Source: Candidatus Spongiisociaceae bacterium (GTDB lineage Bacteria; Actinomycetota; Acidimicrobiia; Spongiisociales; Spongiisociaceae). From it: a stretch of DNA of 64,000 bases. The notes beneath the pieces are model-generated. The model was not told the origin of the DNA and searched no databases. It saw only the letters and a list, made by a program, of their open reading frames with translations. Both the position numbers and the translations under genes were made by a program. Numbering within the stretch: position 1 is the stretch's first letter; the number at the start of each line of letters is the position of its first letter. The DNA lies in assembly GCA_965213975.1 (NCBI GenBank), contig OZ243930.1, forward strand, positions 756,321-820,320. The letters run 5' to 3'. This document shows, piece after piece, positions 13,003 through 48,901 of this stretch.

Positions 13003-13050
13003 CCGCCTATTGTGGCGCGTAGCGCCCAGATATTGAAGCCGGAACCACCC

Positions 13051-14831: not shown

Positions 14832-14982
14832 CGACCCATCCGCGGTTAGGCTCTACTCATCTCGTGGCGGAGGTGTCCACCTGAAGGCAGCTGGGGTCGC
14901 AGCGTGCCTATAGACGACGCGAACGACAAGATTCAGAAATCCGGCCGTCAAACAGACTTTCCGGGGATCTAGGGGAGAAAAA

Positions 14983-17703: not shown

Positions 17704-17749
17704 GTGTCATTTTGTGTAGACCATGTTATAGTCAGTGTCAGAAAGTGGT
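17704..17749 (+). promoter_or_regulatory. Putative MraZ operator. Five direct GTKKN repeats spaced at 10-11 bp in the AT-rich mraZ leader.
   Basis: gGTGTCattttGTGTAgaccatGTTATagtcaGTGTCagaaaGTGGTAgagt. A TAGAGT -10-like hexamer follows. Located 50-100 nt upstream of mraZ. Confidence 0.4.
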
Positions 17750-17800: not shown

Positions 17801-18253
17801 ATGGCAGACCGGGTTCAGGAGTTTCTCGGCGAACTACCAAGGAAGGTAGATCGCAAGGGTCGGGTGGTGTTGCCTGCAGAGTACCGGGAGCAACTGGAAG
17901 GCGACTTCTATGTGACCCGGGGCCGGGACAGGTGCCTGTACGTGTTTCCGAGGGAAGAATGGAACAAGCGCAAAATAGCCTTGGGCGAGATAGACGAATC
18001 GAATCCAGCGGGGCGTGCGGTCGTGCGAACCTTCTTTTCCGGAGCCACCCGTCCGGAGTTGGATTCTGCCGGGCGCATCCCACTCTCGGCACCGTTGCGG
18101 GAGTACGCCCGCCTCAACGCGGACGTGGTGTTCGTCGGTGCCGGACAGTACGCCGAGATCTGGGCGGCGGAGGCTTGGGCTCAATACCAGCCTCGGGCCA
18201 TGGCCGCCTACTCAGGAATAGAGGAAGGGGAACAGAGTAAGCCGATCAATTGA
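17801..18253 (+). CDS. mraZ: Division/cell-wall cluster transcriptional regulator MraZ
   Basis: MADRVQEFLGELPRKVDRKGRVVLPAEYR...second DSAGRIPLSAPLREYA repeat (tandem MraZ/SpoVT-AbrB domains). First gene of the dcw cluster. The track ORF begins at 17735. Confidence 0.9.
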   Translation: MADRVQEFLGELPRKVDRKGRVVLPAEYREQLEGDFYVTRGRDRCLYVFPREEWNKRKIALGEIDESNPAGRAVVRTFFSGATRPELDSAGRIPLSAPLREYARLNADVVFVGAGQYAEIWAAEAWAQYQPRAMAAYSGIEEGEQSKPIN

Positions 18254-18304
18254 CGGCAATATTGCAGGCAGAAGCCTGCCCATTGCCAGCCCTCCGAACT
18301 CCCG

Positions 18305-19300
18305 ATGGATTGTCCCTACTCCGCCCGCAGTCTATTCGGCAGAGGAAGCATCGGAGGGCTGGCAATGGGTCAGGACGAGGAGATGAACCGCACCCATGCG
18401 GACGCATTTCACACGCCCGTGATGCTGGAGGAGGTCGTGGCCTTGTTCACCCCTATCAGCCATGGAGTAATCGTTGACACCACGTTCGGCGGCGGAGGCC
18501 ATACCGCGGCCCTCCTTGAGCATCTGGATTCGGACATAACCGTCCTCGGCATCGACCGTGACCCGCAGGCGATCCGGACCGAACGTCCCCATCCGCGCCT
18601 TCGCTTGATTAACCGCAACTATCAGGAGCTAGATCGGATCATGGCCCAAGAGGGGATAGAGGAGCTAGCCGGAGTCTTGTTCGATCTAGGCGTTTCCAGC
18701 CATCAGCTGGACGAGCGACAGCGGGGTTTTTCCTACCGCAACGACGGGCCACTCGATATGCGCATGGGGCCTGATGCCGACCAAACCGCCGACGATCTGG
18801 TGAACCGAACCACCCGTAAGGACCTGGCCAGAATTATCCGGGTCTTTGGCGAAGAGAGGTTTGCGGATCGCATCGCCCGAGCCATAGTCGAGAGCCGTCC
18901 TATTACTGGAACCTCACGGCTGGCAGACGTGGTGCGCGGTGCCATCCCGGCGGCTACTCGTCGGACCGGGCCCCATCCGGCTCGTCGGACCTTCCAGGCT
19001 CTCCGAATCGCGGTGAACGCTGAGTTGGAGGGATTGTCTCGAGGATTGAACCTCGGTCTTCAGGCACTAAGGCCGGGCGGTCGTTGCGTAACCATCGCTT
19101 ACCACTCTCTCGAGGATCGCATCATCAAGCGACGCATTCGGCGGGGCGAAGGGCGGCACCCGGGCCCGGTACTTCCCGTGCCTCCCACCGTCGATCTCAA
19201 GTCGTTGACCAGAAAACCGCTCCGTCCCACTCCCGAAGAGGTGAGCCGCAACCCCCGAGCCCGAAGCGCACGTCTCCGCGCGGTGGAGAAGCTCGCATGA
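18305..19300 (+). CDS. rsmH: 16S rRNA (cytosine1402-N4)-methyltransferase
   Basis: HTPVMLEEV, SAM-binding DTTFGGGGH, YHSLEDRIIK. Start could be the internal ATG 18365. Confidence 0.9.
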   Translation: MDCPYSARSLFGRGSIGGLAMGQDEEMNRTHADAFHTPVMLEEVVALFTPISHGVIVDTTFGGGGHTAALLEHLDSDITVLGIDRDPQAIRTERPHPRLRLINRNYQELDRIMAQEGIEELAGVLFDLGVSSHQLDERQRGFSYRNDGPLDMRMGPDADQTADDLVNRTTRKDLARIIRVFGEERFADRIARAIVESRPITGTSRLADVVRGAIPAATRRTGPHPARRTFQALRIAVNAELEGLSRGLNLGLQALRPGGRCVTIAYHSLEDRIIKRRIRRGEGRHPGPVLPVPPTVDLKSLTRKPLRPTPEEVSRNPRARSARLRAVEKLA

Positions 19301-19692
19301 GTGCTCGCCCCCAACCGATCACCGAGTCACCGGCGTCACTGCCAGCGCGGGCACCTTTGCGAGTGGTCAGGGGCCGCTCGGCTTGGTGGAGCCCACTGCC
19401 GCTGGTCCTCTATACGACCTTGGCGGTGGGGGCGTTTCTGGCCCTCATCTACTTGAGAACCGCGGTTGACGAGGTGGTCTACGACATAACCATCATCTCG
19501 AATCAGATCGATCAGGAACTCGAACGAAGGGAGCGTCTGGCGGACGAAGTCCGCGCCCTGCAGTCGCCTTGGAACGTCGTACCGGTCGCCGAGGAGATGC
19601 TAGGTATGGTGCTGCCCGCTGAGGTGACCCCGCTGCGGGCCTCACGTGTGGTATCGGATGACCCGCTCCAGTCGCCACGATCATCCGGTTGA
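19297..19692 (+). CDS. ftsL: Cell division protein FtsL (single-pass membrane, coiled coil)
   Basis: ATG overlaps the rsmH stop (ATGA). One TM helix LPLVLYTTLAVGAFLALIYL followed by a coiled-coil region. Position between rsmH and ftsI. Confidence 0.75.
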   Translation: MSARPQPITESPASLPARAPLRVVRGRSAWWSPLPLVLYTTLAVGAFLALIYLRTAVDEVVYDITIISNQIDQELERRERLADEVRALQSPWNVVPVAEEMLGMVLPAEVTPLRASRVVSDDPLQSPRSSG

Positions 19693-19701
19693 GCCAAACA
19701 G

Positions 19702-21453
19702 ATGGGTCCCTCTAGAGCGACGCGATCTAGGCGTCAACCCACCGACTTCCGCCTGCTTTCTATCGGGTTGATACTGGTAGCTTGTTGGGCGTTCGTTGCC
19801 TACCAGCTCTATCAGGTTCAGGTGGTCGACGCGGCTGTCTATCGTGAGGCGGCCGATCGTCAACTCTTCCAGGTTGAGGAAACCTCGGCGGTGCGCGGAA
19901 CTATCTATGACCGTCAGTATCGGGAACTGGCGATCACGTTGCCCTCTCGCAGCATCTACGCCGACCCCGGCCAGATCCAAGACAAGGCTGGCACGGCCCT
20001 AGTGCTGAGCGAGTTACTGGACCTTGACTTTGGGACTCTCCTCCGCAAGCTGGATTCTTCGACCCGGTTTGTTTTCATCGCTCGTCAGGTTGACGCCGAT
20101 GTCGTCACCGCGGTCGAAGCGCAGAACTTGCCAGGCATTCACTCACTCCGCGAGCCAAAACGCAAGTATCCCTATGGGCCGTTAGCTGCTCATGTGGTCG
20201 GCTTCGTGAACATTGACTCTGAGGGTATTGAAGGTATCGAAGCCGAGTATGACGACCTGCTTACCGGACTTCCCGGCCAGATCACGGCCGAGAGGGCCGC
20301 GATGGGCCAACTGATCCCTCAGGGACGCACCGAGATCGAACCGGCCGTGGCTGGCAGCGACATCGTGCTCTCGATCGATCGGGAAATCCAGTTCATGGCC
20401 TACCGCGAGTGCTCTGAGGCTCTGATCCTTTACGAGGCTCGGGCCTGCACGATGGTGGCCATGGATCCGAACACCTTCGAGGTCTTGGCGATGGTGTCGG
20501 CACCGGCATTCGATCCGTCCAATCGTACGGAGGAGGACATCAGGTCGGGGCGTCTGATCAACATCGCCACTAGGTCCGTTTACGAACCCGGTTCCACCCA
20601 GAAGGCGGTTACCATTGCCGCTGCTCTGGACTCTGGAACAGTCTCGTGGGATACCCAATACTTGGTCGAGGACCGGTACGAAGTTGTGGACGGTGCCTGT
20701 GACTCAGGCGGTGACCTCTTCGGCTGTTATCAGGACTTCAGTCCTCATGAGCCTATCGTCATGACCGTGAAGGATTGCATCCGAGTGTCGTCGAACGTCT
20801 GTGCCGTTAAGGTCGGAGAAGATCTGGGCCGAGGTCGGTTAAGCGACTACCTGGACGCCTTCGGCTACGGTCAGGTCACGGGCGTTGATTACCCCGGAGA
20901 GGCCAGCGGTTCAGTCAACCTGGCCAGGGGTTGCCCTACCTGTCCCGCCTCCGCGGCCATTGGCTACTCATTGTCGGTTTCCACGTTGCAGATGGCATCC
21001 GTGTACAGCACCATTGCCAACGGAGGGGTTCGTATGGAGCCCCGACTGCTCTTGGGTTGGGCCAGCGGTGAAGGCCTTCAGCGCGTCGAGCCCTCACCAG
21101 GGACGCAGATCATCTCCGAGGACACCGCCCGAACGGTTCGACTCATGTTGAAATCGGTGGTGGAGGACGGCACTGGTGCCAATGCCGCCGTGGCGGGCTA
21201 CAGCGTGGCCGGGAAGACCGGTACCGCTCGTCGCTTTGACCATAACCTAGGCGTCTACACCGATGACTATGTGGCCAGTTTCGCGGGTATGGCCCCCGCG
21301 GACGATCCTCGCTTAGTCATAGCGGTGGTGATCGACTCGCCCCGGGTGGGCTCGGTGGTCGCCCAGCGAACCGGCGGGGCAGTGGCTGCTCCGGTATTTG
21401 CGTCGGTGATGGAGGGTTCCCTGCACCAAATGGGTGTCAGCCCCGATGGCTGA
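19702..21453 (+). CDS. ftsI: Peptidoglycan D,D-transpeptidase FtsI (class B PBP)
   Basis: N-terminal TM anchor. Transpeptidase motifs STQK, SSN and KTGTA. Confidence 0.9.
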   Translation: MGPSRATRSRRQPTDFRLLSIGLILVACWAFVAYQLYQVQVVDAAVYREAADRQLFQVEETSAVRGTIYDRQYRELAITLPSRSIYADPGQIQDKAGTALVLSELLDLDFGTLLRKLDSSTRFVFIARQVDADVVTAVEAQNLPGIHSLREPKRKYPYGPLAAHVVGFVNIDSEGIEGIEAEYDDLLTGLPGQITAERAAMGQLIPQGRTEIEPAVAGSDIVLSIDREIQFMAYRECSEALILYEARACTMVAMDPNTFEVLAMVSAPAFDPSNRTEEDIRSGRLINIATRSVYEPGSTQKAVTIAAALDSGTVSWDTQYLVEDRYEVVDGACDSGGDLFGCYQDFSPHEPIVMTVKDCIRVSSNVCAVKVGEDLGRGRLSDYLDAFGYGQVTGVDYPGEASGSVNLARGCPTCPASAAIGYSLSVSTLQMASVYSTIANGGVRMEPRLLLGWASGEGLQRVEPSPGTQIISEDTARTVRLMLKSVVEDGTGANAAVAGYSVAGKTGTARRFDHNLGVYTDDYVASFAGMAPADDPRLVIAVVIDSPRVGSVVAQRTGGAVAAPVFASVMEGSLHQMGVSPDG

Positions 21454-22915
21454 GAATCGGGTCACCCTTGCCGAGGTGGCGGCACGGCTTGACGGCGGGC
21501 TTCGTGGAGACGGATCTCTACCGCTGAGAGACGTGACCCACGACAGCCGCCGCGCCGGAGAGGGGTTCCTGTTCGTAGCGATGCGGGGGCGCTTCCACGA
21601 CGGGCACCGGTATGTGAATGATGCGGCAAGCCAGGGCGCAGTGGCTGCGCTGGTGCAGGATTGGGTTCCTTCCGCTCCGATTCCGCAGATCCGGGTTCCC
21701 GACACTCGGCGGGTCATCGGACTGGCCGCCTCACTGGTGCATCACGCTCCTTCCCAACGCCTCAACATCATTGGGGTAACCGGGACCAACGGAAAGACAA
21801 CGGTCACCGCCATGCTGGAGGCGATTGCCGAAGCTGCGGGCCTTTCGTTTGCGAAGATAGGCACGCTAGGAACCACACTGTCGGAGAGCGGCGATGAAAG
21901 CATGGCGCTTACCCACACCACCCCGGAAGGAACCGACCTGCAGCGGGTGTTGCGACAGATGGTCGAGCGGAAGGTATCGATGGTGGCTATGGAGGTGTCC
22001 TCCCATGGGTTGGCTCTCCACCGAGTGGAGGGAACTGCCTTCTCAGTTGCCGCATTCACCAACTTGTCGCAGGATCATCTCGACTTTCACCGAACGATGG
22101 AGGAATACTTCGAAGCTAAGTCTCGCCTGTTTGACGGTAGGGCATCTACCCATGTCATCGACGTCACCGGCCGGTTCGGTCGTCGCTTGGCCGAGCGCCG
22201 GACGAGGCCAGTGGTGACGGTAGGTGTGGGTCCGGAACACGATGTATCGATCCTCGCTCCGCGGGCAAGCTTGTCCGAAGGTCGGTTCGGGTGTCGGATC
22301 GGTGCCGATAGCGCCGAGCTGCGGGTTCGGCCCGGGGGAACACACAACGTACACAACGCCGCCCTGGCCGCCGCCTCAGCCCACCACTTGGGGATCGGTC
22401 TGGAGACGATCCGGCGGGGCCTAAGTTCCCTTCGAGGGGTACGCGGACGGCTGGAACCAGTAGATGAGGGTCAACCCTTCCAGGTACTGATCGATTATGC
22501 CCATAGCCCGGAAGCAGTGGATTTTGTGGTTCGAGCCGCCCGGTCTCATAGCCGAGGCCGCGTCATCGCCGTCATCGGAGGTGCTGGAGATCGAGACCCG
22601 AGCAAGCGCCCGCTCCTCGGTGCTGCGGCCGCTCTCGCCGATGTCGTCGTCGTCACGTCGGACAATCCGCGGAGCGAGGACCCGGCCGCGCTGGTCGAGG
22701 AGGTAGCCGCCGGTGCCCAGGCTGGTGACGCTCGGGTGATCTGCGAGGTCGATAGGGAGACTGCTATTCACATCGCTTTGGACTATGGATCGGTGGGGGA
22801 TGTGGTTCTTATCCTCGGCAAAGGTCACGAGACCTATCAAGACTTCGGGGATCGGGTCATCGCCTTCGATGATCGGGAGGTGGCCTCGGCTTACCTGGCG
22901 GAGCGCTGGCGGTGA
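21434..22915 (+). CDS. murE: UDP-N-acetylmuramoyl-L-alanyl-D-glutamate--2,6-diaminopimelate ligase
   Basis: GVTGTNGKTTVT P-loop. MurE-type IDYAHSPEA. DAP-recognition DNPR motif (TSDNPRSED). Alternative ATG start at 21446. Confidence 0.9.
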   Translation: MSAPMAENRVTLAEVAARLDGGLRGDGSLPLRDVTHDSRRAGEGFLFVAMRGRFHDGHRYVNDAASQGAVAALVQDWVPSAPIPQIRVPDTRRVIGLAASLVHHAPSQRLNIIGVTGTNGKTTVTAMLEAIAEAAGLSFAKIGTLGTTLSESGDESMALTHTTPEGTDLQRVLRQMVERKVSMVAMEVSSHGLALHRVEGTAFSVAAFTNLSQDHLDFHRTMEEYFEAKSRLFDGRASTHVIDVTGRFGRRLAERRTRPVVTVGVGPEHDVSILAPRASLSEGRFGCRIGADSAELRVRPGGTHNVHNAALAAASAHHLGIGLETIRRGLSSLRGVRGRLEPVDEGQPFQVLIDYAHSPEAVDFVVRAARSHSRGRVIAVIGGAGDRDPSKRPLLGAAAALADVVVVTSDNPRSEDPAALVEEVAAGAQAGDARVICEVDRETAIHIALDYGSVGDVVLILGKGHETYQDFGDRVIAFDDREVASAYLAERWR

Positions 22916-22955
22916 CCGGCCTGGACAGTCTAGGAGAGACGGAGCCGGGTGACGT

Positions 22956-24008
22956 ATGATCGCCATGCTTACCGCCGCCACCGTTGCCTTCGCGGTCGCC
23001 CTGTTCGGTACCGCCTACGCCATTCGTCTGTTCCGGGCCTGGAACATCGGGCAGTTCATCCAGCAGGAACTCCAAGGACACATGCACAAGACCGGTACTC
23101 CCACGATGGGAGGGATCGTCATCATCGCCGCCATCCTGGCCGGTTACGGTGCTTCCCACTTCCGCTTCCATCTGACCGATCACGGAATTGCTATTGAGCG
23201 GACGGGTTACGATATGGCCGGTCTCCTCGCCATAGGCGCGATTGTGGGCATGGGCTTGGTGGGCTTTATCGATGACTACCAGTCGCTGTCCCGGTTCCGG
23301 AACAAGGGCCTCGGTATCTCGGCCAAGCTGGGGGGACAGCTGGCGGTGGCAGCCCTATTCACCTGGGGACTGGTCTCGCTGGGAGGCTCTACAGCCATAG
23401 CCTTTGCCCGGCCTACCTCTCTGGATCTTGGTGCCGGATTCTTCGCCGTGTGGGTGCTACTGATGATCACCGGCTTCGCCAACGCGGTGAACTTCACCGA
23501 CGGACTTGACGGTCTGGCCTCCGGATCGGTGGCCCAAGTCGCCGGTGCCTACATGCTCATCGCCTTCTGGATCTTCCGCTATCCGCATATCTACGAGGTT
23601 GAAGGGGGTTTGGGGGTGGCTTCGGTGGCAGCCGCCATCCTGGGAGCCTCGCTGGGATTCCTGTGGTGGAACGCCTGTCCGGCTCGCATCATCATGGGCG
23701 ATGTCGGATCGCAAGCCCTAGGAGGGGGCATAACGGCGTTGGCCCTGCTGACCAGTACCCACCTCCTGCTGTTGATCATCGGCGGGCTCTTTGTCCTCGA
23801 AGCGCTCTCGGTGGTGATCCAGGTGGTCGGGTTCCGCTGGTTCGGCGGAAGGCGGGTCTTCCGCATGGCACCCATTCATCACCACTTCGAGATGAAACAG
23901 TGGCCGGAGACCACCATCATCGTGCGCTTCTGGATTCTTGCCGCCATCGGGGTGGCGCTGGGTCTGGGGATCTTCTACGCCGACTTCCTGGCCTGGAGTG
24001 GCTCATGA
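22956..24008 (+). CDS. mraY: Phospho-N-acetylmuramoyl-pentapeptide transferase
   Basis: 10-TM protein with HKTGTPTMGG and VNFTDGLDGLA motifs. Confidence 0.92.
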   Translation: MIAMLTAATVAFAVALFGTAYAIRLFRAWNIGQFIQQELQGHMHKTGTPTMGGIVIIAAILAGYGASHFRFHLTDHGIAIERTGYDMAGLLAIGAIVGMGLVGFIDDYQSLSRFRNKGLGISAKLGGQLAVAALFTWGLVSLGGSTAIAFARPTSLDLGAGFFAVWVLLMITGFANAVNFTDGLDGLASGSVAQVAGAYMLIAFWIFRYPHIYEVEGGLGVASVAAAILGASLGFLWWNACPARIIMGDVGSQALGGGITALALLTSTHLLLLIIGGLFVLEALSVVIQVVGFRWFGGRRVFRMAPIHHHFEMKQWPETTIIVRFWILAAIGVALGLGIFYADFLAWSGS

Positions 24009-25327
24009 GCGTGCTCGTCCTGGGTGCGGGCATGTCAGGATCGGCGGCTTGTCGTCTGTTGGCCCATCACGGCGTCCCCCATGCGGTCTATGACCGGCGA
24101 GAGGATGCGGGGGAGACGTTGGGGGACCGATCGCCTCTCTTGAGCGGACGGTGGGATCCGCGCTACCTCGACGGGATTTCCTTGGTCGTAACTAGCCCCG
24201 GTTTCAAACCCCATCTGACCCCGCTGTCGGACGTTCGGCGAGCGGGTATTCCCATCTGGAGCGAGGTGGAACTGGGTGGGCGTTTCATGAGACGACCCAT
24301 GGTGGCCATAACCGGTACTAACGGGAAGTCCACGGTATGTAGACAAACCGCCGCCATGCTGAAGGCATCTGGAGTCGACGCCGTGGCGGCGGGCAACGTG
24401 GGGTTTCCGTTAAGCGATGTGGCTTTGGCCGACCACGCGGTGGTGGTCCTGGAGATTTCCAGCTTCCAGCTTCACTACACCTACACGCTGGCCCCTGAGG
24501 TATCCGTCTTTCTGAATCTGGCGGACGATCACCTCGATTGGCATCGATCCATGGCGGCCTACCGGTCGGACAAGGATCGGATCTCGCGCGGGCTCACCGA
24601 CGAACACCTCCTTGTGTTCGACTCAGATGACCGGGTGGCCACGGCTCATGCGGCACAATCGCCCGGCCAGGCGATCCCGGTCACCGGGGTGGCACCAATT
24701 CGAGACGGGTCCTTCGGCCTGACCTCTACCGGCTTGCTGCTTCCCTCCGGGTTCGTCCCCATGGACCAAGTCCCGGATCTTGATCCCTCGTTCCGGGTGA
24801 ACCTCACGGCGGCGGCGATCTCGTCGGTGGCGTTGGGTGGGGACCCAGAGGCATCAGCTGAGGTGGTAGCGCGGTTTCGGCACCACTTTCATCGCCGGAC
24901 GGTGGTAGGCGAGTCCGGAGGGGTGACCTGGGTTGATGACTCGAAGGCCACCAACCCGCATGCCGCGATGGCCGCGATTCGCTCCTATCGGTCCGTTGTG
25001 TTGATCGCCGGAGGGGTCAGGAAGGGCCTTGACATGACACCACTCCTGCGAGCACCGAACATTCGACACATGGTGGCGATGGGGGAGTGCGGTCCTGATC
25101 TGTTGGACAGGGCCGGCGGCCTTTCGGCTGATTATGCCGCCTCGATGGAGGAAGCGGTCCGCTTGGCCGGAACCCGCGCTCAGCCAGGCGATACGGTATT
25201 GTTATCACCTGGTACCACTGGATTTGATATGTTCACATGTTACGAGGATAGGGGCAACACCTTCATCCGGCATGTGGCGGAATACGTTGGCGAGGACGAA
25301 CGCGAGCTGGGAGGGCTGGCTCGGTGA
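24005..25327 (+). CDS. murD: UDP-N-acetylmuramoylalanine--D-glutamate ligase
   Basis: ATG overlaps the mraY stop (ATGA). ITGTNGKST P-loop. MurD-type DDSKATNPHAA. Confidence 0.9.
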   Translation: MSVLVLGAGMSGSAACRLLAHHGVPHAVYDRREDAGETLGDRSPLLSGRWDPRYLDGISLVVTSPGFKPHLTPLSDVRRAGIPIWSEVELGGRFMRRPMVAITGTNGKSTVCRQTAAMLKASGVDAVAAGNVGFPLSDVALADHAVVVLEISSFQLHYTYTLAPEVSVFLNLADDHLDWHRSMAAYRSDKDRISRGLTDEHLLVFDSDDRVATAHAAQSPGQAIPVTGVAPIRDGSFGLTSTGLLLPSGFVPMDQVPDLDPSFRVNLTAAAISSVALGGDPEASAEVVARFRHHFHRRTVVGESGGVTWVDDSKATNPHAAMAAIRSYRSVVLIAGGVRKGLDMTPLLRAPNIRHMVAMGECGPDLLDRAGGLSADYAASMEEAVRLAGTRAQPGDTVLLSPGTTGFDMFTCYEDRGNTFIRHVAEYVGEDERELGGLAR

Positions 25328-26502
25328 CCGACAAGTCGACCACCCGTCTGTCCACTTGGTCTCGGCAACGGGACGCGTTGGCGATGTCTCGATCTAGGTC
25401 GGTGGTCCTCCTTCTGGTCCTAGCTGGGGTTCTGGTTGTAATCGGGCTCGGTGCCACCCTGTCGGCTTCCTCTGCGTCCGGGATCATGCAAGAAGCAGAT
25501 CGTCTGGCGGTCTTCAAGAGGCAAATCCGTTGGGTGGTGGTTGGGATACTGCTGTTGGTGATCACGATTCGGGTTCCGTACGACAGATACCGAAGGGTCG
25601 CCCCCTACCTTCTGGCCGGTTCCTTCCTTGGGCTGTTGGCCACCCTCGTCTCGGGCGTCAGGGCGGGCGGGGCGACTAGGTGGCTGGAGTTGGGGGCGAT
25701 TACCGTACAGGTTTCAGAGTTCTCCAAGCTGGCGGTGATCCTGTATCTGGCGGCGGTACTGGCCCGGCGAGCCGATGTCCTCGGGCAACCGGCTCAATGG
25801 TTCGGACCGTTGCTCTTCTCGGTGGGCGGAACGTGCGCGTTGATCATCCTCCAGCCTGACCTGGGCACCACGATCATCGTCGCCGGGGTAGCGGGCACGA
25901 TGGTGATCGCATCCGGAATACCTCTCCGTTACATCGTCGGGCTGGGTGCAGGTGCCTTGGCTGCCGTCGCCTACGCCACTTTCTCATTGCAATACCGGCG
26001 CGAGCGGTTCATGTGTTTCCTGGATCCCTTGTCCGACCCTACTGATACCTGCTTTCAGGTGGTGCAGAGCCTCATTGCGCTGGGCAGCGGCCATTGGTTC
26101 GGGGTTGGCCTAGGTGCTTCGCGTTCGCGATGGGCTTACCTTCCCAACCCGCATACTGACTTCATCTTCACCATCGTGGGCGAGGAGACCGGCTTCTTGG
26201 GTGCTGCTGCCCTTCTCCTCACCTTGCTAGGTCTCGCCTTGGTGGGTATGTGGGTGGCCTACTGCACCACCGACCTGTATGCGCGGCTGGTGGCGGTGGG
26301 CATAACGGGCTGGCTCGGACTGCAGTCGTTGGTAAACGTCGGAGGGGCCGTAGGAGCAATCCCGATCACCGGCTTGGTGCTTCCGTTGGTGTCGGTTGGC
26401 GGAAGCGCCATGTTGTCCACCATGGTTGCGATTGGGGTGCTCATCAACATCGCTCGTAACGCTCCGAGAGAGGCCGTGGCGTTGGCCGGGACGGGTAGTT
26501 GA
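25324..26502 (+). CDS. ftsW: Peptidoglycan glycosyltransferase FtsW (SEDS family)
   Basis: SEDS polytopic membrane protein located within the dcw cluster. Confidence 0.88.
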   Translation: MTDKSTTRLSTWSRQRDALAMSRSRSVVLLLVLAGVLVVIGLGATLSASSASGIMQEADRLAVFKRQIRWVVVGILLLVITIRVPYDRYRRVAPYLLAGSFLGLLATLVSGVRAGGATRWLELGAITVQVSEFSKLAVILYLAAVLARRADVLGQPAQWFGPLLFSVGGTCALIILQPDLGTTIIVAGVAGTMVIASGIPLRYIVGLGAGALAAVAYATFSLQYRRERFMCFLDPLSDPTDTCFQVVQSLIALGSGHWFGVGLGASRSRWAYLPNPHTDFIFTIVGEETGFLGAAALLLTLLGLALVGMWVAYCTTDLYARLVAVGITGWLGLQSLVNVGGAVGAIPITGLVLPLVSVGGSAMLSTMVAIGVLINIARNAPREAVALAGTGS

Positions 26503-27587
26503 GCTTCGCCATCGCGGCCGCTGGCACCGGCGGGCATGTATTCCCTGGTCTGGCGGTGGCTGAGGCCCTAGTGCGGCGGGGCGTACCGCCGGAGCGGGTT
26601 CTCTTCGTCGGTGGTTACCGAATGGAATCCGATCTAGTGCCTGAGCAGGGCTTCCCGCTGCTGCAGGTAGAGCTGATGGGTCTATCACGTGGTCGGGCGG
26701 CGCTTCGGAACCTGCGGATCCCCGCCGTGGTGGGACGCGCCGCTAAGACGGTGGGTGAGGAGCTTTCTCGCCGGGGGGTGCGGAAGGTTCTCTGCATGGG
26801 AAGCTATGTAACCGTTCCGACGGCAATTGCCGCCCGCCGACTCGGGATACCCATCTATCTCCACGAGCAGAACGCCGAGGCCGGGCTAGCCAATCGGTTC
26901 ACTAACCGGTGGGCTGAACGTTGCTTTCTCACCTACCCGGCCACCGCCCGGATTGCGGGAGAAATCGTGGGCTATCCCCTCCGGGTAGCGCTGGCCTACC
27001 TTGACAAGGAGGTGGCCAGGGACGAGGCCTTGGCCAGGTACGGGCTGGTGGACGGCCCGGCCACGGTGGGGGTGATGGGCGGCAGCCTCGGATCACCCGC
27101 TATCAACGATGCCACCTCGGACTGGGCCTCGAGGTGGTCGGGACCGCCGCTGCAGATTGTTCACCTGGCGGGTGCCGACCGGGTAACGGGGGTCTCCATC
27201 GCTAGGGATGCCCCGGGCGTCACCCGACGGGTCCTGGGTTTCGAGCACCGGATGGATCTGTTCTACGCCATATCGGATCTCGTCGTGGCCCGATCGGGGG
27301 GAGGCCAGATGGAGGCCGCGGTCACGGGAACCCCCATCATCCTGGTCCCCGGCCGCTTTGCTGGAGGTCACCAGAGAGCCAATGCCGAGGCCATGGCCGA
27401 CGCCGGTGCCGCCATTCTGGTGGATGAGGCCCAGATTGACACCCTGGGCGAGGTATTGACCGGCCTGCTGGAGGATGAAGAGGGACGAGTCTCGCTCAGC
27501 CGGGCGGCCCGCCAGCTTGCTCACCCCAAGGCGGCCGACACCATTGCGGCCATGATGTTGGATGGTTCGGATGTCGCTACCGGTTGA
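26499..27587 (+). CDS. murG: UDP-GlcNAc:undecaprenyl-PP-MurNAc-pentapeptide GlcNAc transferase
   Basis: N-terminal AAGTGGHVFPGLAVAEAL and the C-terminal GT28 domain. Confidence 0.9.
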   Translation: MSFAIAAAGTGGHVFPGLAVAEALVRRGVPPERVLFVGGYRMESDLVPEQGFPLLQVELMGLSRGRAALRNLRIPAVVGRAAKTVGEELSRRGVRKVLCMGSYVTVPTAIAARRLGIPIYLHEQNAEAGLANRFTNRWAERCFLTYPATARIAGEIVGYPLRVALAYLDKEVARDEALARYGLVDGPATVGVMGGSLGSPAINDATSDWASRWSGPPLQIVHLAGADRVTGVSIARDAPGVTRRVLGFEHRMDLFYAISDLVVARSGGGQMEAAVTGTPIILVPGRFAGGHQRANAEAMADAGAAILVDEAQIDTLGEVLTGLLEDEEGRVSLSRAARQLAHPKAADTIAAMMLDGSDVATG

Positions 27588-28935
27588 TCCTGCTCGCGTG
27601 CATCTCGTGGGAGCGGGAGGGGCAGGGATGGGTCCGCTCGCCAAGCTGCTTGCTCGGATGGGTCATGTGGTTTCGGGATCCGACCTGGTAGCGAGCTCGA
27701 GCCTGGACAGCCTGGGCCGCGACAACGTGGAGACCTGGGTGGGGAGTCGACCATCCCGCATGGAGGAGTGTGCCCTAGTGGTTGCATCCGCCGCGGTACC
27801 TCGGTCCGATCCGGAGCTGGGCGCGGCCCGGTCGGCGGGCGTCGTTACCTGGGATCGTGCGCGGCTGTTGGGTGCCATCACGGCTGCTATCCCGACTCTT
27901 GGTTTTACGGGTACCCATGGTAAGACCACCTCTACCGCACTGGCCGTATCGGCGACCCACGGTCTCGGTCTCGACCCTTCCTATCTGGTCGGCGGTGACC
28001 TAGTCGGGCACGAGGACAATGCCCACCTTGGAACCGATGACTTGTTGCTTCTTGAAGCTGACGAGGCCTACGGCACGTTCGGCCATCTGGCCTTGGCTGG
28101 TCTGGTGGTCACGAACGTCGACATTGATCATCTCGACCATTATGGAACCCCCGAACGCCTCGAAGAGGCCTTCGTCCAGGTGGTGGAGCGGGTGGAGGGG
28201 CCGGTGGTGGTTGGCCTGGATGATCCCGGGGGGGCCAGGCTGGCCGCCCGTACCGGGAAACCCGGCTATGGCATCCATCCGGAAGCCGTTTGGCGGATAG
28301 AGGAGCTCACCCCGGCGGTTGATTTAGTGAGGTTCCGTCTGTCCGGACGTTTCGCTCCAGCCGAGGTGACGATCGGACGGCCCGGCTTACACAACGCACA
28401 GAATGCGACCGGTGTTCTTGCCCTACTGGCGGAAATGGGTCATGACATAGCCGGGGCCATTGACGCTCTCGCCCGTTTCAAGGGTGTACACCGCCGCTTA
28501 GAGCATCGATCAACCGTACGCGGGGTCGCCGTCATCGACAGCTATGCGCACCTCCCGGCGGAGATAGCGGCGGATATCGATGCTCTGAGACCGATGGATA
28601 GGAATAGGTTGTGGGTGGTGTTCCAGCCGCATCTGTACTCGAGAACGCTCGCCTTAGCCGGGGAGTTCGGTGCTGCTCTGGCCAAGGCGGACCGGGTGGT
28701 GGTTACCGACATCTACGGGGCACGCGAGTCGGCGATCGCGGGTGTCACCGGTCGCCTTGTAGCCGATGCCGTAGATGGCTCGGGGGTGGACAGCAGTTAT
28801 GTCCCCGGCCTTGACGAAGCTGAGCGCCTCGTCTCGTCTCAGGCGGAGGAGGGGGATGTGGTACTCATCCTGGGCGCGGGCGATATCTCCACGCTTCCCG
28901 GACGCCTGATCCGAAGCCTGTCAGCCCCACTATGA
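27562..28935 (+). CDS. murC: UDP-N-acetylmuramate--L-alanine ligase
   Basis: VHLVGAGGAGM Rossmann motif. GTHGKTTST P-loop. IDSYAHLP. Confidence 0.9.
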   Translation: MVRMSLPVDPARVHLVGAGGAGMGPLAKLLARMGHVVSGSDLVASSSLDSLGRDNVETWVGSRPSRMEECALVVASAAVPRSDPELGAARSAGVVTWDRARLLGAITAAIPTLGFTGTHGKTTSTALAVSATHGLGLDPSYLVGGDLVGHEDNAHLGTDDLLLLEADEAYGTFGHLALAGLVVTNVDIDHLDHYGTPERLEEAFVQVVERVEGPVVVGLDDPGGARLAARTGKPGYGIHPEAVWRIEELTPAVDLVRFRLSGRFAPAEVTIGRPGLHNAQNATGVLALLAEMGHDIAGAIDALARFKGVHRRLEHRSTVRGVAVIDSYAHLPAEIAADIDALRPMDRNRLWVVFQPHLYSRTLALAGEFGAALAKADRVVVTDIYGARESAIAGVTGRLVADAVDGSGVDSSYVPGLDEAERLVSSQAEEGDVVLILGAGDISTLPGRLIRSLSAPL

Positions 28936-29873
28936 CGACCTGGGCAGAACTCATGGCTGAGGGATCAGTACGCAGTCAGGTAAATCTGGCCCCGATGACC
29001 ACCTACAAGCTGGGCGGCGCGGCGCGATGGTTTCTTGAGGCAACCTCAACCGACACCCTCCGGACAGTGTCTCGGGCCGCCCTTGATCGTGGCCTGGAGA
29101 TCGCGGTGATCGGGCGCGGTAGCAACCTCCTGGTGGCTGATTCTGGCTTTCGGGGACTGGCCATCCGGCTAGGGGCCGCTTTCAAGGCCGTCGAGATCTG
29201 TTCTGCCGAAGGGACGGTGAGCGCGGGTGCGGCGGTAGGCCTCCCGGTACTGGCCCGCCGAGTGGCGGAAGGGGGTTGGTCGGGTCTGGAGTTCTACGTG
29301 GGAATACCAGGAACCGTCGGTGGAGCGGTTCGTATGAACGCCGGGTTCTACGGGGTGGAGACCGTCGACGTGATACGTTCAGCTTCGATCCTCGACCTCC
29401 GGTCGGGCCGTACCGACCATCGGCGGGTGGACCAACTGGGTCTTGCTTATCGTCGCAGCGGGCTGGGGCCTGACGACGTGGTGTTGGCAGCCGAGTTCGG
29501 TCTGAACAAGGGTGACCGGGACCGTATCCTTGCCCTAATGAGGGAGGCGATCCGTTGGCGGCGGGACTATCAGCCCGGCGGGACGCTCAATGCCGGGAGT
29601 GTGTTTCGTAATCCTCCCCAGGACAGCGCTGGTCGTATAATCGACTCGTTGGGCTTGAAGGGATTGCGGCGGGGAGGGGCACACATTTCTACCAAGCATG
29701 CCAACTTCTTCGTGGTTGACGCCGGTGCCACCGCCCAGGATGTACTTACTCTGGTAACCGATGTTCACAAGTTGGTGAAGCGTGCCACCGGGATCGTCCT
29801 GACTCCCGAGATGCGGTTCCTCGGATTTGACCCCGAGGAAGTGGCACCCCTTACCGGAGGCGAGAACTCTTGA
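28932..29873 (+). CDS. murB: UDP-N-acetylenolpyruvoylglucosamine reductase
   Basis: FAD-binding domain with GRGSNLLV. MurB C-terminal domain. Sits between murC and ftsQ. Confidence 0.88.
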   Translation: MTTWAELMAEGSVRSQVNLAPMTTYKLGGAARWFLEATSTDTLRTVSRAALDRGLEIAVIGRGSNLLVADSGFRGLAIRLGAAFKAVEICSAEGTVSAGAAVGLPVLARRVAEGGWSGLEFYVGIPGTVGGAVRMNAGFYGVETVDVIRSASILDLRSGRTDHRRVDQLGLAYRRSGLGPDDVVLAAEFGLNKGDRDRILALMREAIRWRRDYQPGGTLNAGSVFRNPPQDSAGRIIDSLGLKGLRRGGAHISTKHANFFVVDAGATAQDVLTLVTDVHKLVKRATGIVLTPEMRFLGFDPEEVAPLTGGENS

Positions 29874-30625
29874 CCGCCTCGACCTCTGATGAGCAACGCC
29901 GATCGGTCAGAGATAGAAGGGCGCGGAGGTCAGCACAGGTCGTGTTTGTGGCGTCCGTAGTGGGCGGACTGGTTTGGGTGGCTTCATTCTTCGGGGTAGA
30001 ACGGATCGACATAACCGGTGCCAGCCTGGTGCCGGTCGAGCAAATCGTCGCGGAGAGCGGTCTGGTTGTCGGGAGACCCCTCATCACCATCCGCCCCCCG
30101 GCCATAGAGGAAAAACTGACTGGACATCCACGGATCGCCGCCGCCTCGGTGAAGCTGGTCTTCCCCGATCGCGTAAAGGTGACCGTACGGGAGCGGGTCG
30201 ATGCCGCAGTCATTGAGCTTGCCGACAATTGGGCAGTGGTGGCCTACGACGCAGTGGTGGTCGATTACGCCGCCGCTCCTGACGACTCCCTTCCCCTAAT
30301 GAGGATTCCATTAGTGGACCCGGGCCTGGGACAGGCTATAGGTCAACCTGCCGTCTTAGGAGCGTTAGAGTTCTTGGCTGCGCTTCCTGAGGAATTCACC
30401 TTGGATGTGGTGATTTCAGAACGAGACCATCAGCTCTGGGCCTGGGTTGGGAACCGAGCGGCCAAGCTCGGGCCTCCGACGGACCTCGAAAGAAAGGCGC
30501 TGTCTCTGGTGGCGCTGCTCTCATCCAATACTGAGGATGGCCTGATTGACGTCACCGCACCGAACCGGCCCGCGATCAGGCCGTGGGTTACGACTGATCC
30601 AGACGTCGAAGACCTCAAACTATAA
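29870..30625 (+). CDS. ftsQ: Cell division protein FtsQ/DivIB (POTRA domain)
   Basis: N-terminal TM segment, POTRA-like VERIDITGASLVPVEQI, and position upstream of ftsZ. Confidence 0.8.
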   Translation: MTASTSDEQRRSVRDRRARRSAQVVFVASVVGGLVWVASFFGVERIDITGASLVPVEQIVAESGLVVGRPLITIRPPAIEEKLTGHPRIAAASVKLVFPDRVKVTVRERVDAAVIELADNWAVVAYDAVVVDYAAAPDDSLPLMRIPLVDPGLGQAIGQPAVLGALEFLAALPEEFTLDVVISERDHQLWAWVGNRAAKLGPPTDLERKALSLVALLSSNTEDGLIDVTAPNRPAIRPWVTTDPDVEDLKL

Positions 30626-30729
30626 CGTTGAGGATAAACGTGAAGTATAACTAGTAATTTAAGGTATGGGTTCAGGTAACCTATAGCGGTCAGGTTCGAG
30701 TCGGTCTCCGCGATTGGCAGAGTGGAAGG
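30626..30729 (+). promoter_or_regulatory. AT-rich ftsQ-ftsZ intergenic region, likely carrying ftsZ promoter(s)
   Basis: GC content drops sharply here (tataacgttgaggataaacgtgaagtataactagtaatttaaggtatg). TTGAGG, an 18-nt spacer, then TAGTAA resembles a sigma-70/SigA -35/-10 pair. Confidence 0.4.
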
Positions 30730-30741
30730 ATGATTGACCAT

Positions 30742-31809
30742 ATGACGATTTCCAACGAAACCAGTCTCCGCGGGTACGTCGCGGTTATCCGGGTGGTGGG
30801 AGTTGGCGGTGGCGGAATGAACGCCATCAACCGCATGATCCGCACCGGGATAGCCGGGGTGGATTTCATCGCCATCAATACCGATGCGCAGGCGCTCTTG
30901 ATGTCAGAGGCCGACGTCAAGTTGAATATCGGGGCCGAGATCACCAAGGGACTTGGTGCCGGTGCCGACCCGTCAGTAGGTAAAGCCGCCGCCGAGGACG
31001 ACCGCGACGATCTGGAAGACGTCCTGGCCGGATCAGATCTGGTGTTTGTGACCGCGGGGGAAGGTGGCGGCACTGGCACCGGAGCGGCACCGGTCGTGGC
31101 AGCATGTGCGCGCAAGCTGGGTGCCCTCACGGTAGGCGTGGTGACTCGCCCGTTCGGATTCGAGGGGCATCGGAGATCCAAGGTGGCCGAAGAGGGCATA
31201 GCCGATCTGAGGGAACAGGTTGATGCCATGATCGTCATCCCGAACGACAACCTCTTGGCAGAAGCCGATCGTTCGACCACGATGGGCGAGGCGTTCGCCA
31301 TGGCAGATCAGGTATTGACCGACGGAGTAAACGGTATTACCCAGATCATCACTAATCCGGGATTGATCAACGTCGACTTCGCCGATGTAAAAGCGATTCT
31401 CTCCGATTCCGGGACGGCAGTCATGGGCGTCGGCCAGGCTTCCGGCGAGAGCCGGGCCCTGCAGGCGGCTCAGCAGGCGATGGCTAGCCCGCTACTGGAG
31501 ACCTCCATGGAAGGGGCGAGAGGAGTACTGCTCTCGATCACCGGCCCTCCGGATATGACGTTGACGGAGGTAAGCGAGGCCGCCGCCGCGGTTCAGGAAG
31601 GGGCCGACTCAGATGCACAGATCATCTTTGGTGCCTCCCAGGACGACGCGATGGGACAAGAGTTCCGGCTCACCATCATCGCCGCCGGGGTCAGATCACG
31701 TCAATCCGGAGCGGGGGCACGGAATACCGCCAGCCGAGCCGGTGCCTCAGGTAGGGCTCAGCAGGCCTACGACGATCCGTTAGAGATTCCAGACTGGCTG
31801 CAGGAGTAG
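30742..31809 (+). CDS. ftsZ: Cell division GTPase FtsZ
   Basis: Tubulin signature GGGTGTG. Near-identical block structure to actinobacterial FtsZ (IRVVGVGGGGMNAINRM, NTDAQAL, VTRPFGFEG). Alternative start at 30730. Confidence 0.95.
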   Translation: MTISNETSLRGYVAVIRVVGVGGGGMNAINRMIRTGIAGVDFIAINTDAQALLMSEADVKLNIGAEITKGLGAGADPSVGKAAAEDDRDDLEDVLAGSDLVFVTAGEGGGTGTGAAPVVAACARKLGALTVGVVTRPFGFEGHRRSKVAEEGIADLREQVDAMIVIPNDNLLAEADRSTTMGEAFAMADQVLTDGVNGITQIITNPGLINVDFADVKAILSDSGTAVMGVGQASGESRALQAAQQAMASPLLETSMEGARGVLLSITGPPDMTLTEVSEAAAAVQEGADSDAQIIFGASQDDAMGQEFRLTIIAAGVRSRQSGAGARNTASRAGASGRAQQAYDDPLEIPDWLQE

Positions 31810-31821
31810 CTGAACGACCTA

Positions 31822-32463
31822 ATGCTGGACATGCTTTTGCTGCCGCCGGGGTTTCGTGGCGCGGCCTTTACAACTGCCGCAGCCGGTGATGTCCGCTCAG
31901 GAAATCGGGGAGAGGTCGCAGACTTGCTGGGTATCACCGAGGCGTGGTCCATGCCATCCCGCCAGGTTCATGGATCGACGGTGATAGCCGTTAGCTCGGC
32001 CGGTCCGGCCGGAGAGGGTGACGCGTTGGCCACGGAGACCACCGGGTTGCCTATAGCCGTCACGACCGCCGACTGCGCGAGCGTGGTGCTGGAGACCGAC
32101 GCCGCGGTGGCGGTTGCGCATGCCGGATGGAGGGGTGTGGTAGCGGGGGTGGTGAGGGCCGCGGCTCGGGCCGTGGAGAGCCTCGGATCGTCACCCGGAC
32201 CGGTACGGCGCGCGGCCAGCGGTCCGTCCATAGGCCCTTGTTGCTTCGAGGTAGGTGCCGACGTGGCCGCATTATTCAACCACCGCCATGTCAAGTCCAT
32301 CGGCGGTAGGACCACGGTAGATCTGTCGGGTGCCGTCAGGGATCAAGTGCCGGATGCCGAGTGGTGGTCGGCACCTGTTTGCACCCGATGCGACGAGGGG
32401 TATTTCTCGTTCCGCGCCAACCGGACCACGGCTCGCATGGCCGCCATCGGATGGCTTCCGTGA
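31822..32463 (+). CDS. pgeF: YfiH/PgeF family (DUF152) laccase-domain protein
   Basis: LLPPGFRGAAFTT N-terminus. His/Cys metal motifs (VAHAGWRG, GPCCFEVG). Conserved position after ftsZ. Confidence 0.75.
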   Translation: MLDMLLLPPGFRGAAFTTAAAGDVRSGNRGEVADLLGITEAWSMPSRQVHGSTVIAVSSAGPAGEGDALATETTGLPIAVTTADCASVVLETDAAVAVAHAGWRGVVAGVVRAAARAVESLGSSPGPVRRAASGPSIGPCCFEVGADVAALFNHRHVKSIGGRTTVDLSGAVRDQVPDAEWWSAPVCTRCDEGYFSFRANRTTARMAAIGWLP

Positions 32464-33125
32464 CCGTTGCCGACCGTCTCAGGATGGTGACGGAGCGGGT
32501 ACGGGATGCAGCCCGTCGCTCGGGTAGGGACCCGGCGTTGATCAAAGTCGTCGCCATCGGGAAGGGACAACCTGCCGCCGCGATCGAAGAGGCGCTTGAG
32601 TGCGGACATCGTGTCTTCGGGGAGAACCGGGCCCAGGAACTCGTTACCAAGGTCGACCTCCTCCCCGCCGACGTGGAGTGGCACTTCGTCGGAGCGCTCC
32701 AGACCAACAAGGCCCGGTTGGTGCGTCCCCGGGTCTCTCTTCTTCATTCCATGGACCGAGACCGCCTGGCCAGGGTATGGCGGAAGGGGTTGCGGGCGGG
32801 ACCTTCGACCCTGATGCAGGTCAACATCGGGCGAGAGCCTCAGAAGTCCGGAGTCTCTCCTGAACTCGTGCTGGATACCTTTGAGCGGTGGGAAGCAGAT
32901 GGACTCTCCCTCGCCGGGTTGATGGCGATACCTCCCCAGGGTTCCGTACCGGAGGATTCTCGGCCCTTCTTTGCGCGAATGCGGAAGCTGAGGGATGAGA
33001 TCTCTGCCCGAGTAGGGCGTCCTTTGGCGCTTAGTATGGGCATGACGGACGATTTTGAGGTTGCTGTCGAGGAAGGATCAACGATCGTGCGAGTCGGACG
33101 GGCTATCTTTGGCCCAAGGAACTGA
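32451..33125 (+). CDS. YggS/YlmE family pyridoxal-phosphate homeostasis protein
   Basis: Overlaps the pgeF 3-prime end. FGENRAQEL and HFVGALQTNKAR motifs of the alanine-racemase-like PLP barrel. Confidence 0.85.
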   Translation: MASVTVADRLRMVTERVRDAARRSGRDPALIKVVAIGKGQPAAAIEEALECGHRVFGENRAQELVTKVDLLPADVEWHFVGALQTNKARLVRPRVSLLHSMDRDRLARVWRKGLRAGPSTLMQVNIGREPQKSGVSPELVLDTFERWEADGLSLAGLMAIPPQGSVPEDSRPFFARMRKLRDEISARVGRPLALSMGMTDDFEVAVEEGSTIVRVGRAIFGPRN

Positions 33126-33132
33126 TACGGAA

Positions 33133-33681
33133 ATGAGCACCATGAACAGAATTCTCACCTGGATGGGTCTCGTGGACGAGGGCGAGCCTGATCGGGAAAT
33201 GGGCTACGGCACCGGCACGCCGGATCGCAGGCCGTCACCGCGAGGGAATTTCCAGATTGTGGATGACCAGGTTGCGGTACAGGAGGGTAGAAACCCGAGG
33301 GTGGCTGAACCGGTCCCGCCCTACGTTCGACCAGCGGTAGTGCCGGTGAGCGGGGACTCCGGGGTGATACTCCGCCGCCAGGATCAGACCATCCAGCCAG
33401 CCGGTTACACCGAGATTCTGGAAGCGCGGACCTTCGACGATGTTCGCCGGGTGGCGGATACCCTCAGAGAGCAGGTCCCGGTGGTGGTGGTTCTCAAGAA
33501 CCTTGACCCGCCTGGCGTTCGGCGCTTGGTGGACTTTCTGTGCGGTCTGGTCTACGCGGTGGATGGAACTCTCCAGAAGTCGGCGGCGGGTGTGCTGCTG
33601 GTTCGACCGTCCGGGGTCTCGGTAGCACGCCAGGAGTTGCGCCGACTGGCCTCGCTCGGACTGTACGACTTCGACGCCTGA
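33133..33681 (+). CDS. sepF: Cell division protein SepF
   Basis: C-terminal DUF552 core (VVVVLKNLDPPGVRRLVDFLCGLVYAVDGTLQKSAAGVLLV). Conserved position after yggS. Confidence 0.85.
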   Translation: MSTMNRILTWMGLVDEGEPDREMGYGTGTPDRRPSPRGNFQIVDDQVAVQEGRNPRVAEPVPPYVRPAVVPVSGDSGVILRRQDQTIQPAGYTEILEARTFDDVRRVADTLREQVPVVVVLKNLDPPGVRRLVDFLCGLVYAVDGTLQKSAAGVLLVRPSGVSVARQELRRLASLGLYDFDA

Positions 33682-33688
33682 GCCTACG

Positions 33689-33943
33689 TTGGTTCGACTC
33701 GTATGCAATCTGGCCCAGCTATACATGGTGGCTGTTATAGCCCGGTCCATCCTCAGTTGGTTGGAGGTGCCGGGTGAGCATCCGGTGGGCCGTGCGGTGG
33801 CGTCGCTGTCGAGGATCGTGGACCCGCCCCTTCGCCCACTGCGCAAGAGATTACCGCCTATCCCTATCGGCGGGGTGAGCCTTGATCTCTCGCCGATTGT
33901 CATGGTTGCGGCGATCGTGATCGTTACCGGGTTTATCTGCTAG
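33689..33943 (+). CDS. YggT/YlmG family membrane protein
   Basis: 84 aa, two TM helices. Position between sepF and divIVA. Confidence 0.75.
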   Translation: MVRLVCNLAQLYMVAVIARSILSWLEVPGEHPVGRAVASLSRIVDPPLRPLRKRLPPIPIGGVSLDLSPIVMVAAIVIVTGFIC

Positions 33944-34327
33944 GTGGTGCAGGTGCGGGTGACGGCGGATGAGGTTCGGGAGATCAAGTTCTCGGTGGCC
34001 CTGCGCGGCTACGCGCCTGACGAAGTGGATAGCTTCCTTGACGTGGTAGTCGACACCCTTTCCGAGTACGAGGCTTACCGAAGCAGGTCCCGGAAGAGGC
34101 TCGGCGAGTTGGAGTCGACCATCAACCGGATCGTGACCGGGCAATCGGCCGACGATCGCGGCGACGCCGACGAGACAGTGGTGGGCGTTCGCAGCATGGT
34201 TGAGGAAGCCGCGCGAGTGTCGGAGCAGATGGTCGAGCAGGCGCTTGAAGTGGGGGAGCACCTCCTCGAAGAACTCCGGAAGCTGCTAGCTGAGGCCGAC
34301 AAACCTGGTCAGATGCCCCGAGATTGA
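33944..34327 (+). CDS. DivIVA-domain protein (short, 127 aa)
   Basis: N-terminal DivIVA motif TADEVREIKFSVALRGYAPDEVDSFLD followed by a coiled coil. Much shorter than Wag31-type DivIVA. Confidence 0.75.
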   Translation: MVQVRVTADEVREIKFSVALRGYAPDEVDSFLDVVVDTLSEYEAYRSRSRKRLGELESTINRIVTGQSADDRGDADETVVGVRSMVEEAARVSEQMVEQALEVGEHLLEELRKLLAEADKPGQMPRD

Positions 34328-46262: not shown

Positions 46263-46353
46263 GCAATGGCTCTCCGTCCGAGGGTGGTGTTATAGGTTTC
46301 TCTCTCGTGGCGGGTAGGTGCCAGCCCCGAGGCGAGCAATAAAGCGAGGTGCA

Positions 46354-47094: not shown

Positions 47095-47169
47095 CGGTTC
47101 CTTCATTGCCGGTCTGGTTGTACACCGGGCCGGTCTCTGCACAATAAATCCTGACGAAAAGGAGCGAAA

Positions 47170-48852: not shown

Positions 48853-48901
48853 TCTGGAGAGGAGCAAGACCAGGTTGTAAAGGAACCGACGAGGGAAGGA
48901 C

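Follow-up and report, generated by a model that had tools for sequence, protein, structure and literature searches.

Where does a bacterium keep murF when its division and cell wall (dcw) cluster passes from murE straight to mraY? The question is raised by a 64-kb stretch of contig OZ243930.1 from Candidatus Spongiisociaceae bacterium (the window, meaning the whole 64,000 nt), which carries 18 co-directional genes on the plus strand at positions 17801-34327. An earlier description made from the sequence alone, here called the original prediction, regarded this cluster as unusual and asked whether murF had been lost or relocated. We find that it is an ordinary, intact and lineage-typical Acidimicrobiia dcw cluster that is already represented in public genomes. 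Judging from other members of the class, the murF of this genome is very probably located elsewhere in the genome, relocated and not lost.

The cluster runs from murE directly into mraY

Genes were identified by NCBIfam and Pfam profile scans of the window proteins, applying the curated model cut-offs. Combined with the coordinates of the open reading frames (ORFs), the scans gave the order mraZ-rsmH-ftsL-ftsI-murE-mraY-murD-ftsW-murG-murC-murB-ftsQ-ftsZ-pgeF-yggS-sepF-yggT-divIVA, which on a single strand starts with mraZ-rsmH, continues with fts and mur genes and reaches ftsZ, in the order of the reference clusters. The features are as follows:

17801 to 18253, plus strand: mraZ, ATG at 17801 (TIGR00242, 102.7 bits, cut-off 98)
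18305 to 19300, plus strand: rsmH, also called mraW (TIGR00006, 295 bits, cut-off 154)
19297 to 19692, plus strand: probable ftsL, assigned by position and 4-nt overlap with rsmH (NF053549 FtsL_Actino, 30 bits, under the cut-off of 55)
19702 to 21453, plus strand: ftsI, a class B penicillin-binding protein (PBP) and D,D-transpeptidase (SpoVD, FtsI and PBP2 models, E-values 1e-116 to 1e-86, each under its own cut-off score)
21434 to 22915, plus strand: murE of the meso-diaminopimelate (DAP)-adding type (TIGR01085 and NF001126, both over cut-off; DNPR and IDYAHSP motifs)
22916 to 22955, no strand: murE-mraY spacer of 40 nt, with neither murF nor a murF remnant
22956 to 24008, plus strand: mraY (TIGR00445, 251 bits, cut-off 192)
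24005 to 25327, plus strand: murD (TIGR01087, 339 bits, cut-off 212)
25324 to 26502, plus strand: ftsW (TIGR02614, 330 bits, slightly under the cut-off of 337.5)
26499 to 27587, plus strand: murG (TIGR01133, 202 bits, E-value 1e-59, under the cut-off of 250)
27562 to 28935, plus strand: murC (TIGR01082, 355 bits, cut-off 335)
28932 to 29873, plus strand: murB (NF010480, 289.5 bits, cut-off 259)
29870 to 30625, plus strand: ftsQ, fitting by position (NF004039, E-value 4e-15, under cut-off)
30730 to 31809, plus strand: ftsZ (TIGR00065, 398 bits, cut-off 295)
31822 to 32463, plus strand: pgeF, yfiH family (TIGR00726, 97 bits, E-value 1e-27, under the cut-off of 141)
32460 to 33125, plus strand: yggS, a pyridoxal phosphate-binding protein (TIGR00044, 168 bits, cut-off 106)
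33133 to 33681, plus strand: sepF, start uncertain as the ORF opens at 33055 (Pfam PF04472, 64 bits)
33689 to 33943, plus strand: yggT (Pfam PF02325, 61 bits)
33944 to 34327, plus strand: DivIVA-domain protein of 127 aa (TIGR03544 DivIVA domain, 45 bits, cut-off 22)

On the murE models the product of 21434-22915 scored 456 bits with TIGR01085 (cut-off 257), 452 bits with NF001126 (cut-off 373) and 472.5 bits with NF001124, the last slightly under its cut-off of 476. Its 493-aa translation contains TSDNPRSEDP and LIDYAHSPE, and the DNPR motif in the C-terminal domain of MurE is a determinant of DAP specificity. That the gene had been mis-assigned, encoding MurF or a bifunctional MurE/MurF, could be read from its matching the MurF model TIGR01143 with 127.5 bits and a genuine MurF protein with 80 bits. 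These matches are, however, at paralogue level, the former lying far below the cut-off of 288.6 and far below the score on the MurE model. The protein has the length of a single ligase and matched only the first half of the 965-position fusion model, and it combines the presence of DNPR with the absence of a YNANP motif from its translation, so that neither mark of MurF, D(D/A)YNANP or a score above the TIGR01143 cut-off, was found. We give mis-assignment practically no credence.

Between the murE stop codon (22915) and the ATG of mraY (22956) lie 40 nt. Six-frame phmmer searches of the 64 kb with the window MurC, MurD and MurE and a bona fide MurF as queries revealed no fourth Mur ligase, and the same type of search with an Acidimicrobiia Ddl revealed no ddl. 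Since the gap between ftsQ and ftsZ comprises only 104 nt, there is no room for ftsA. The ftsQ-ftsZ pair without ftsA is followed by pgeF-yggS-sepF-yggT-divIVA, a division module of actinobacterial type.

At seven junctions (rsmH/ftsL, mraY/murD, murD/ftsW, ftsW/murG, murC/murB, murB/ftsQ and pgeF/yggS) neighbouring genes overlap by 4 nt, which suggests translational coupling. The longest ORFs overlap by 20 nt at ftsI/murE (21434-21453) and by 26 nt at murG/murC (27562-27587). Two of the start codons involved are ambiguous: murE may start at GTG 21434 or ATG 21446, and murC has the alternatives ATG 27571 and GTG 27598. With the alternative starts both overlaps would be shorter.

These data bear out most of what had been read from the sequence. 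The gene order was recovered by the profile scans, the match for FtsL being weak, and model scores and motifs agree with the assignment of 21434-22915 to MurE with DNPR and IDYAHSP. The DDxYNANP motif, named in the original prediction as the sign of a MurF in this place, was looked for and is not present. Coordinates and searches likewise confirm the 40-nt junction and the lack of murF in this cluster. That ftsA and ddl are missing from it holds, as does its description as actinobacterial-like, in which the sepF-yggT-divIVA tail agrees, and the terminal DivIVA homologue indeed has 127 aa.

The junction is shared by all Acidimicrobiia loci compared

When the window MurE was scanned against a single genome for each species, the best matches were those of Ca. 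Spongiisocius variivorans, at 70% identity, and of Acidimicrobiia bacterium p16x65bins.30, at 69%; the matches that followed reached at most 46%. Taxon names of the compared loci and metagenome-assembled genomes (MAGs) are NCBI labels and unverified. The NCBI lineage of Spongiisocius is Acidimicrobiia, order Ca. Spongiisociales; our literature searches found no paper mentioning Spongiisocius. From murE to yggS, the loci of the two best-matching relatives (L001 and L002) correspond to the window in every gene, sharing the order murE-mraY-murD-ftsW-murG-murC-murB-ftsQ-ftsZ-pgeF-yggS. By this one marker and by synteny the window is assigned to Acidimicrobiia. The lineage is deep-branching in the class: with 41-46% identity, its MurE stands no nearer to the MurE of the remaining Acidimicrobiia than to that of other Actinomycetota.

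An assembly artefact or a recent deletion of murF in this strain has next to no probability, with nothing specific speaking for it. The distance from the murE stop to the mraY stop is about 1.1 kb in the window and the same in the independent assemblies L001 and L002, and it amounts to about 1.0-1.1 kb in six other Acidimicrobiia MAGs. Moreover, the 40-nt spacer holds no remnant of murF, and the genes flanking it are full length and without internal stops.

To see how common such a junction is, we annotated 80 murE loci taken from the MurE scan and considered those with both murE and a downstream mraY as informative (n = 68). murF lay between the two genes in 47 of these and was absent there in 21, among them all eight Acidimicrobiia loci (L001, L002, L007, L061, L062, L074, L075 and L079), in which murE is followed directly by mraY. 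The remaining 13 belong to Bacillota, Bacteroidota and one MAG of Solirubrobacteraceae, and include a Bacillaceae locus (L018) that has murB in the cluster as well, several Clostridia, Prevotella and two Chryseobacterium. Contrary to the original prediction, murF does not hold a universal place between murE and mraY, as murE abuts mraY in 21 of 68 loci, and with eight of eight Acidimicrobiia loci and 13 others sharing the junction the cluster cannot be called unusual either. The proposed comparison of dcw synteny across Acidimicrobiia and related genomes thereby came out in favour of a junction common to the class. Many lineages characteristically lack particular genes of the cluster (PMC8871954); the supplement of that study has no Acidimicrobiia rows.

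The placement of murB was predicted correctly, between murC and ftsQ, and the reading of it as a Bacillus-like feature did not stand, for murB following murC is widespread beyond Bacillus. It was seen in Acidimicrobiia, other Actinomycetota (L003), Thermoleophilia (L012, L060), Nitrospirota (L028, L040, L067) and a deltaproteobacterial MAG (L069). This is better taken for a common and probably old arrangement than for one typical of Bacillus. The Acidimicrobiia loci read murC-murB-ftsQ-ftsZ-pgeF-yggS wherever they extend that far.

Two side observations emerged from the annotated loci. In the Solirubrobacteraceae MAG (L032), murE-mraY-murD-ftsW is not preceded by the mraZ-ftsI genes, and in several Paenibacillus, Virgibacillus and Pyrinomonadaceae loci (L039, L050, L057, L071, L076, L077) a solitary murE-like gene, presumably a paralogue, stands without dcw neighbours.

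murF lies outside the dcw cluster in other Acidimicrobiia MAGs

Queried with the MurF P0001 from a neighbouring Actinomycetota lineage (L003), none of the eight loci from Acidimicrobiia yielded a MurF at a distance of up to about 10 kb from murE. A protein search with the same L003 MurF returned only the query's own lineage among the best 120 matches, with no Acidimicrobiia MurF. Searching a library of representatives at 50% identity with this query, combined with inspection of cluster names, led to P0248, which NCBI annotates as MurF in an Acidimicrobiia MAG. Used in turn as the seed of a protein search, P0248 added P0300, P0311 and P0392, which NCBI names as MurFs of Acidimicrobiia or Acidimicrobiales, and their close relatives. 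In a scan that did not include P0300, P0248, P0311, P0392 and the relative P0301 reached 366-379 bits on TIGR01143 (cut-off 288.6), and NDAYNANP is invariant in the alignment of Acidimicrobiia and related MurFs. Literature searches retrieved no paper on murF in Acidimicrobiia.

Annotation of the loci showed that murE and mraY are both absent from the neighbourhoods of the Acidimicrobiia MurFs, which fall into two contexts. In the first, murF is followed by a purM-like gene with an AIRS domain, often with a 4-nt overlap. This pair occurs in GCA_020850945.1, GCA_019695375.1 and two further lineages (L081, 10001-12411; L082 and L083, 10001-12703; L168-L171, 10001-12400; L173, 4489-6661). ftsE-ftsX-smpB lies upstream of the pair, with the exception of GCA_020850945.1 (L081), in which none of these genes was seen there; in L081-L083 murI-rph-rdgB follows 4-5 kb downstream of the pair, with a JAB/ThiS/CysM-like group preceding murI. 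The AIRS protein scored 231.8 bits on the purM model TIGR00878, slightly under the cut-off of 236.

In the second context, found in GCA_036558145.1 and GCA_029858855.1 (L084, 1976-4467; L085, 8786-11359), ddl and murF form a divergent pair. The Ddl of the GCA_029858855.1 lineage reached 426 bits on NF002528 against a cut-off of 262. As background we considered 80 arbitrary metagenomic murF loci, whose MurFs are at most 46% identical and stand among the matches listed for the Acidimicrobiia MurF alignment. About 12 of the 80 are adjacent to ddl and outside dcw, and five of the ddl-adjacent loci (L112, L119, L126, L127, L162) show the divergent layout together with an Acidimicrobiia-like Ddl. 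The divergent genes share a short common intergenic region, which could be a bidirectional regulatory region.

The lack of a precomputed PF01225 match was tried as a mark of the Acidimicrobiia-type MurF and rejected; P0394 (L172), a relative of the Acidimicrobiia MurFs, has no PF01225 match either, yet belongs to a canonical cluster.

Relocation is favoured over loss of MurF

The murF-less junction being common to the Acidimicrobiia loci compared and murF lying outside dcw in other MAGs of the class, relocation is supported over loss, and an out-of-cluster murF is most likely a class-level trait of gene order in Acidimicrobiia. On the alternatives of relocation and loss set out in the original prediction, other MAGs of the class, in which murF was found out of the cluster, speak for relocation; for this genome the new position is inferred.

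Several points weigh against this reading. The window covers only 64 kb, and the murF of this genome is not in it. The murF of the closest relatives, L001 and L002, was not retrieved either, and the murF-less clusters and the out-of-cluster murF genes come from different MAGs of the class. With a MurE so distant from those of other Acidimicrobiia, extrapolation from other orders is indirect. Finally, P0394 is part of a canonical murE-murF-mraY cluster, which implies that related lineages retain the ancestral layout.

The failure to find either MurF or Ddl in the 64 kb, and to retrieve murF for the two closest relatives, would also suit a genuine loss of MurF, in which peptidoglycan is made with the aid of a non-orthologous enzyme or from tripeptide-only precursors. 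Yet the pathway is otherwise intact, and MraY as well as a D,D-transpeptidase of FtsI type are encoded. Both act on pentapeptide precursors with a D-Ala-D-Ala end, so that MurF activity is required. The junction is common to all eight Acidimicrobiia loci, MAGs of the class carry a normal MurF at other loci, and 64 kb represent about 2% of a typical 3-Mb genome. We consider such a loss very unlikely. There is an equally slim chance that this deep-branching, Spongiisociales-like lineage, whose relatives are sponge-associated, truly has neither MurF nor Ddl and either forgoes MurF-added D-Ala-D-Ala or employs a non-homologous ligase.

Apart from the D-Ala-D-Ala branch, the cluster encodes the whole route through the cytoplasmic and membrane stages of precursor synthesis. 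MurB, MurC, MurD and MurE build the UDP-N-acetylmuramic acid (UDP-MurNAc)-tripeptide, and a MurF encoded elsewhere would most likely act in trans, adding D-Ala-D-Ala to the tripeptide released by MurE, with ddl likewise encoded elsewhere and its product acting in trans. MraY and MurG then make lipid I and lipid II, and FtsW and FtsI as septal synthase pair polymerise and cross-link at a septum organised by FtsZ, SepF, FtsQ and FtsL together with DivIVA, proteins of the divisome and of polar growth. In members of the class with murF beside ddl, this placement couples the maker of D-Ala-D-Ala to its consumer. In others, murF is paired with the purM-like gene downstream of ftsE-ftsX-smpB, in some of them a few kb from murI.

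Surroundings of the cluster in the window

Elsewhere the window encodes fatty-acid synthesis, carries a Fur/HNH/peroxiredoxin group right before mraZ and has genes for catabolism and transport downstream; none of these is connected with the cell wall. One promoter-like feature was noted:

17704 to 17732, plus strand: candidate sigma-70-like promoter GTGTCA-17-TATAGT upstream of mraZ, the count of such matches being no higher than in shuffles

Around this match, between 17700 and 17760, GTGT/GTGG repeats (GTGTCA, GTGTAG, GTGTCA, GTGGTA) recur with a spacing of about 10-11 bp; we take them to resemble the direct repeats of MraZ boxes. A small HNH endonuclease gene (16533-17072, minus strand) is situated just upstream of mraZ beside the Fur-family and peroxiredoxin genes, and an HNH gene also precedes mraZ in the unrelated-looking L172 (1244-1753, plus strand).

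Downstream, a long catabolic cluster with all its genes in one direction (44229-55588, plus strand) comprises genes for hydantoinase A and an Asp/Glu/hydantoin racemase, for an ABC transporter of the peptide type (SBP_bac_5, two permeases and two ATPases), and for hydantoinase B along with an amidohydrolase. As part of this cluster, the racemase (46318-47094) is probably not the cell-wall enzyme MurI. Three ORFs gave no Pfam match (12235-13569, minus strand, 444 aa; 14853-15461, minus strand, 202 aa; 60199-61116, plus strand, 305 aa) and may be either real genes peculiar to the lineage or, the DNA being GC-rich, shadow ORFs.

Comparison with known dcw clusters

Taken by itself the locus matters little: it is a textbook dcw cluster whose lack of murF is typical of the lineage and is also met in several other phyla. 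Adjacency of murE and mraY, combined with murC-murB, seems to be a consistent marker of Acidimicrobiia by synteny. The occurrence of murF in at least two alternative neighbourhoods within the class, beside ddl or beside the purM-like gene, may be of use as a phylogenetic character of minor weight, and the moves of murF offer a possible small case study in the erosion of the dcw cluster.

The dcw cluster of the Mycobacterium/Streptomyces type reads mraZ-rsmH-ftsL-ftsI-murE-murF-mraY-murD-ftsW-murG-murC-ftsQ-ftsZ-yfiH-ylmE-sepF-ylmG-divIVA. The window agrees with it in overall order and strand, in the absence of ftsA and ddl, and in the succession of ftsZ by pgeF (yfiH)-yggS (ylmE)-sepF-yggT (ylmG)-divIVA; the same type of order was seen in Actinomycetota among the metagenomic loci (L099, L107, L150, L154). 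It differs from this type in lacking murF at the murE-mraY junction and in having murB between murC and ftsQ.

In Bacillus subtilis, murE and mraY are adjacent, murB belongs to the cluster, and ddl and murF form an operon of their own. The first two features are shared by the window, and both also occur in the Bacillaceae locus L018. In contrast to the window, the Bacillus cluster contains two PBP genes (pbpB and spoVD) and ftsA, and has no murC. The ddl-murF tandem of Bacillus likewise differs from the divergent pair of the Acidimicrobiia MAGs, in which the murF/purM-like pair constitutes a second context.

Within Acidimicrobiia the window differs from L007, L061, L074 and L079, which are without murD as well, mraY being followed directly by ftsW, so that a second Mur ligase is out of the cluster there; murD is kept in the window, L001, L002, L062 and L075. 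The longest form of dcw, with 17 genes, includes both murB and murC (PMC8871954). Compared with this form the window is without murA, murF, ddl and ftsA, and has murB and murC in common with it.

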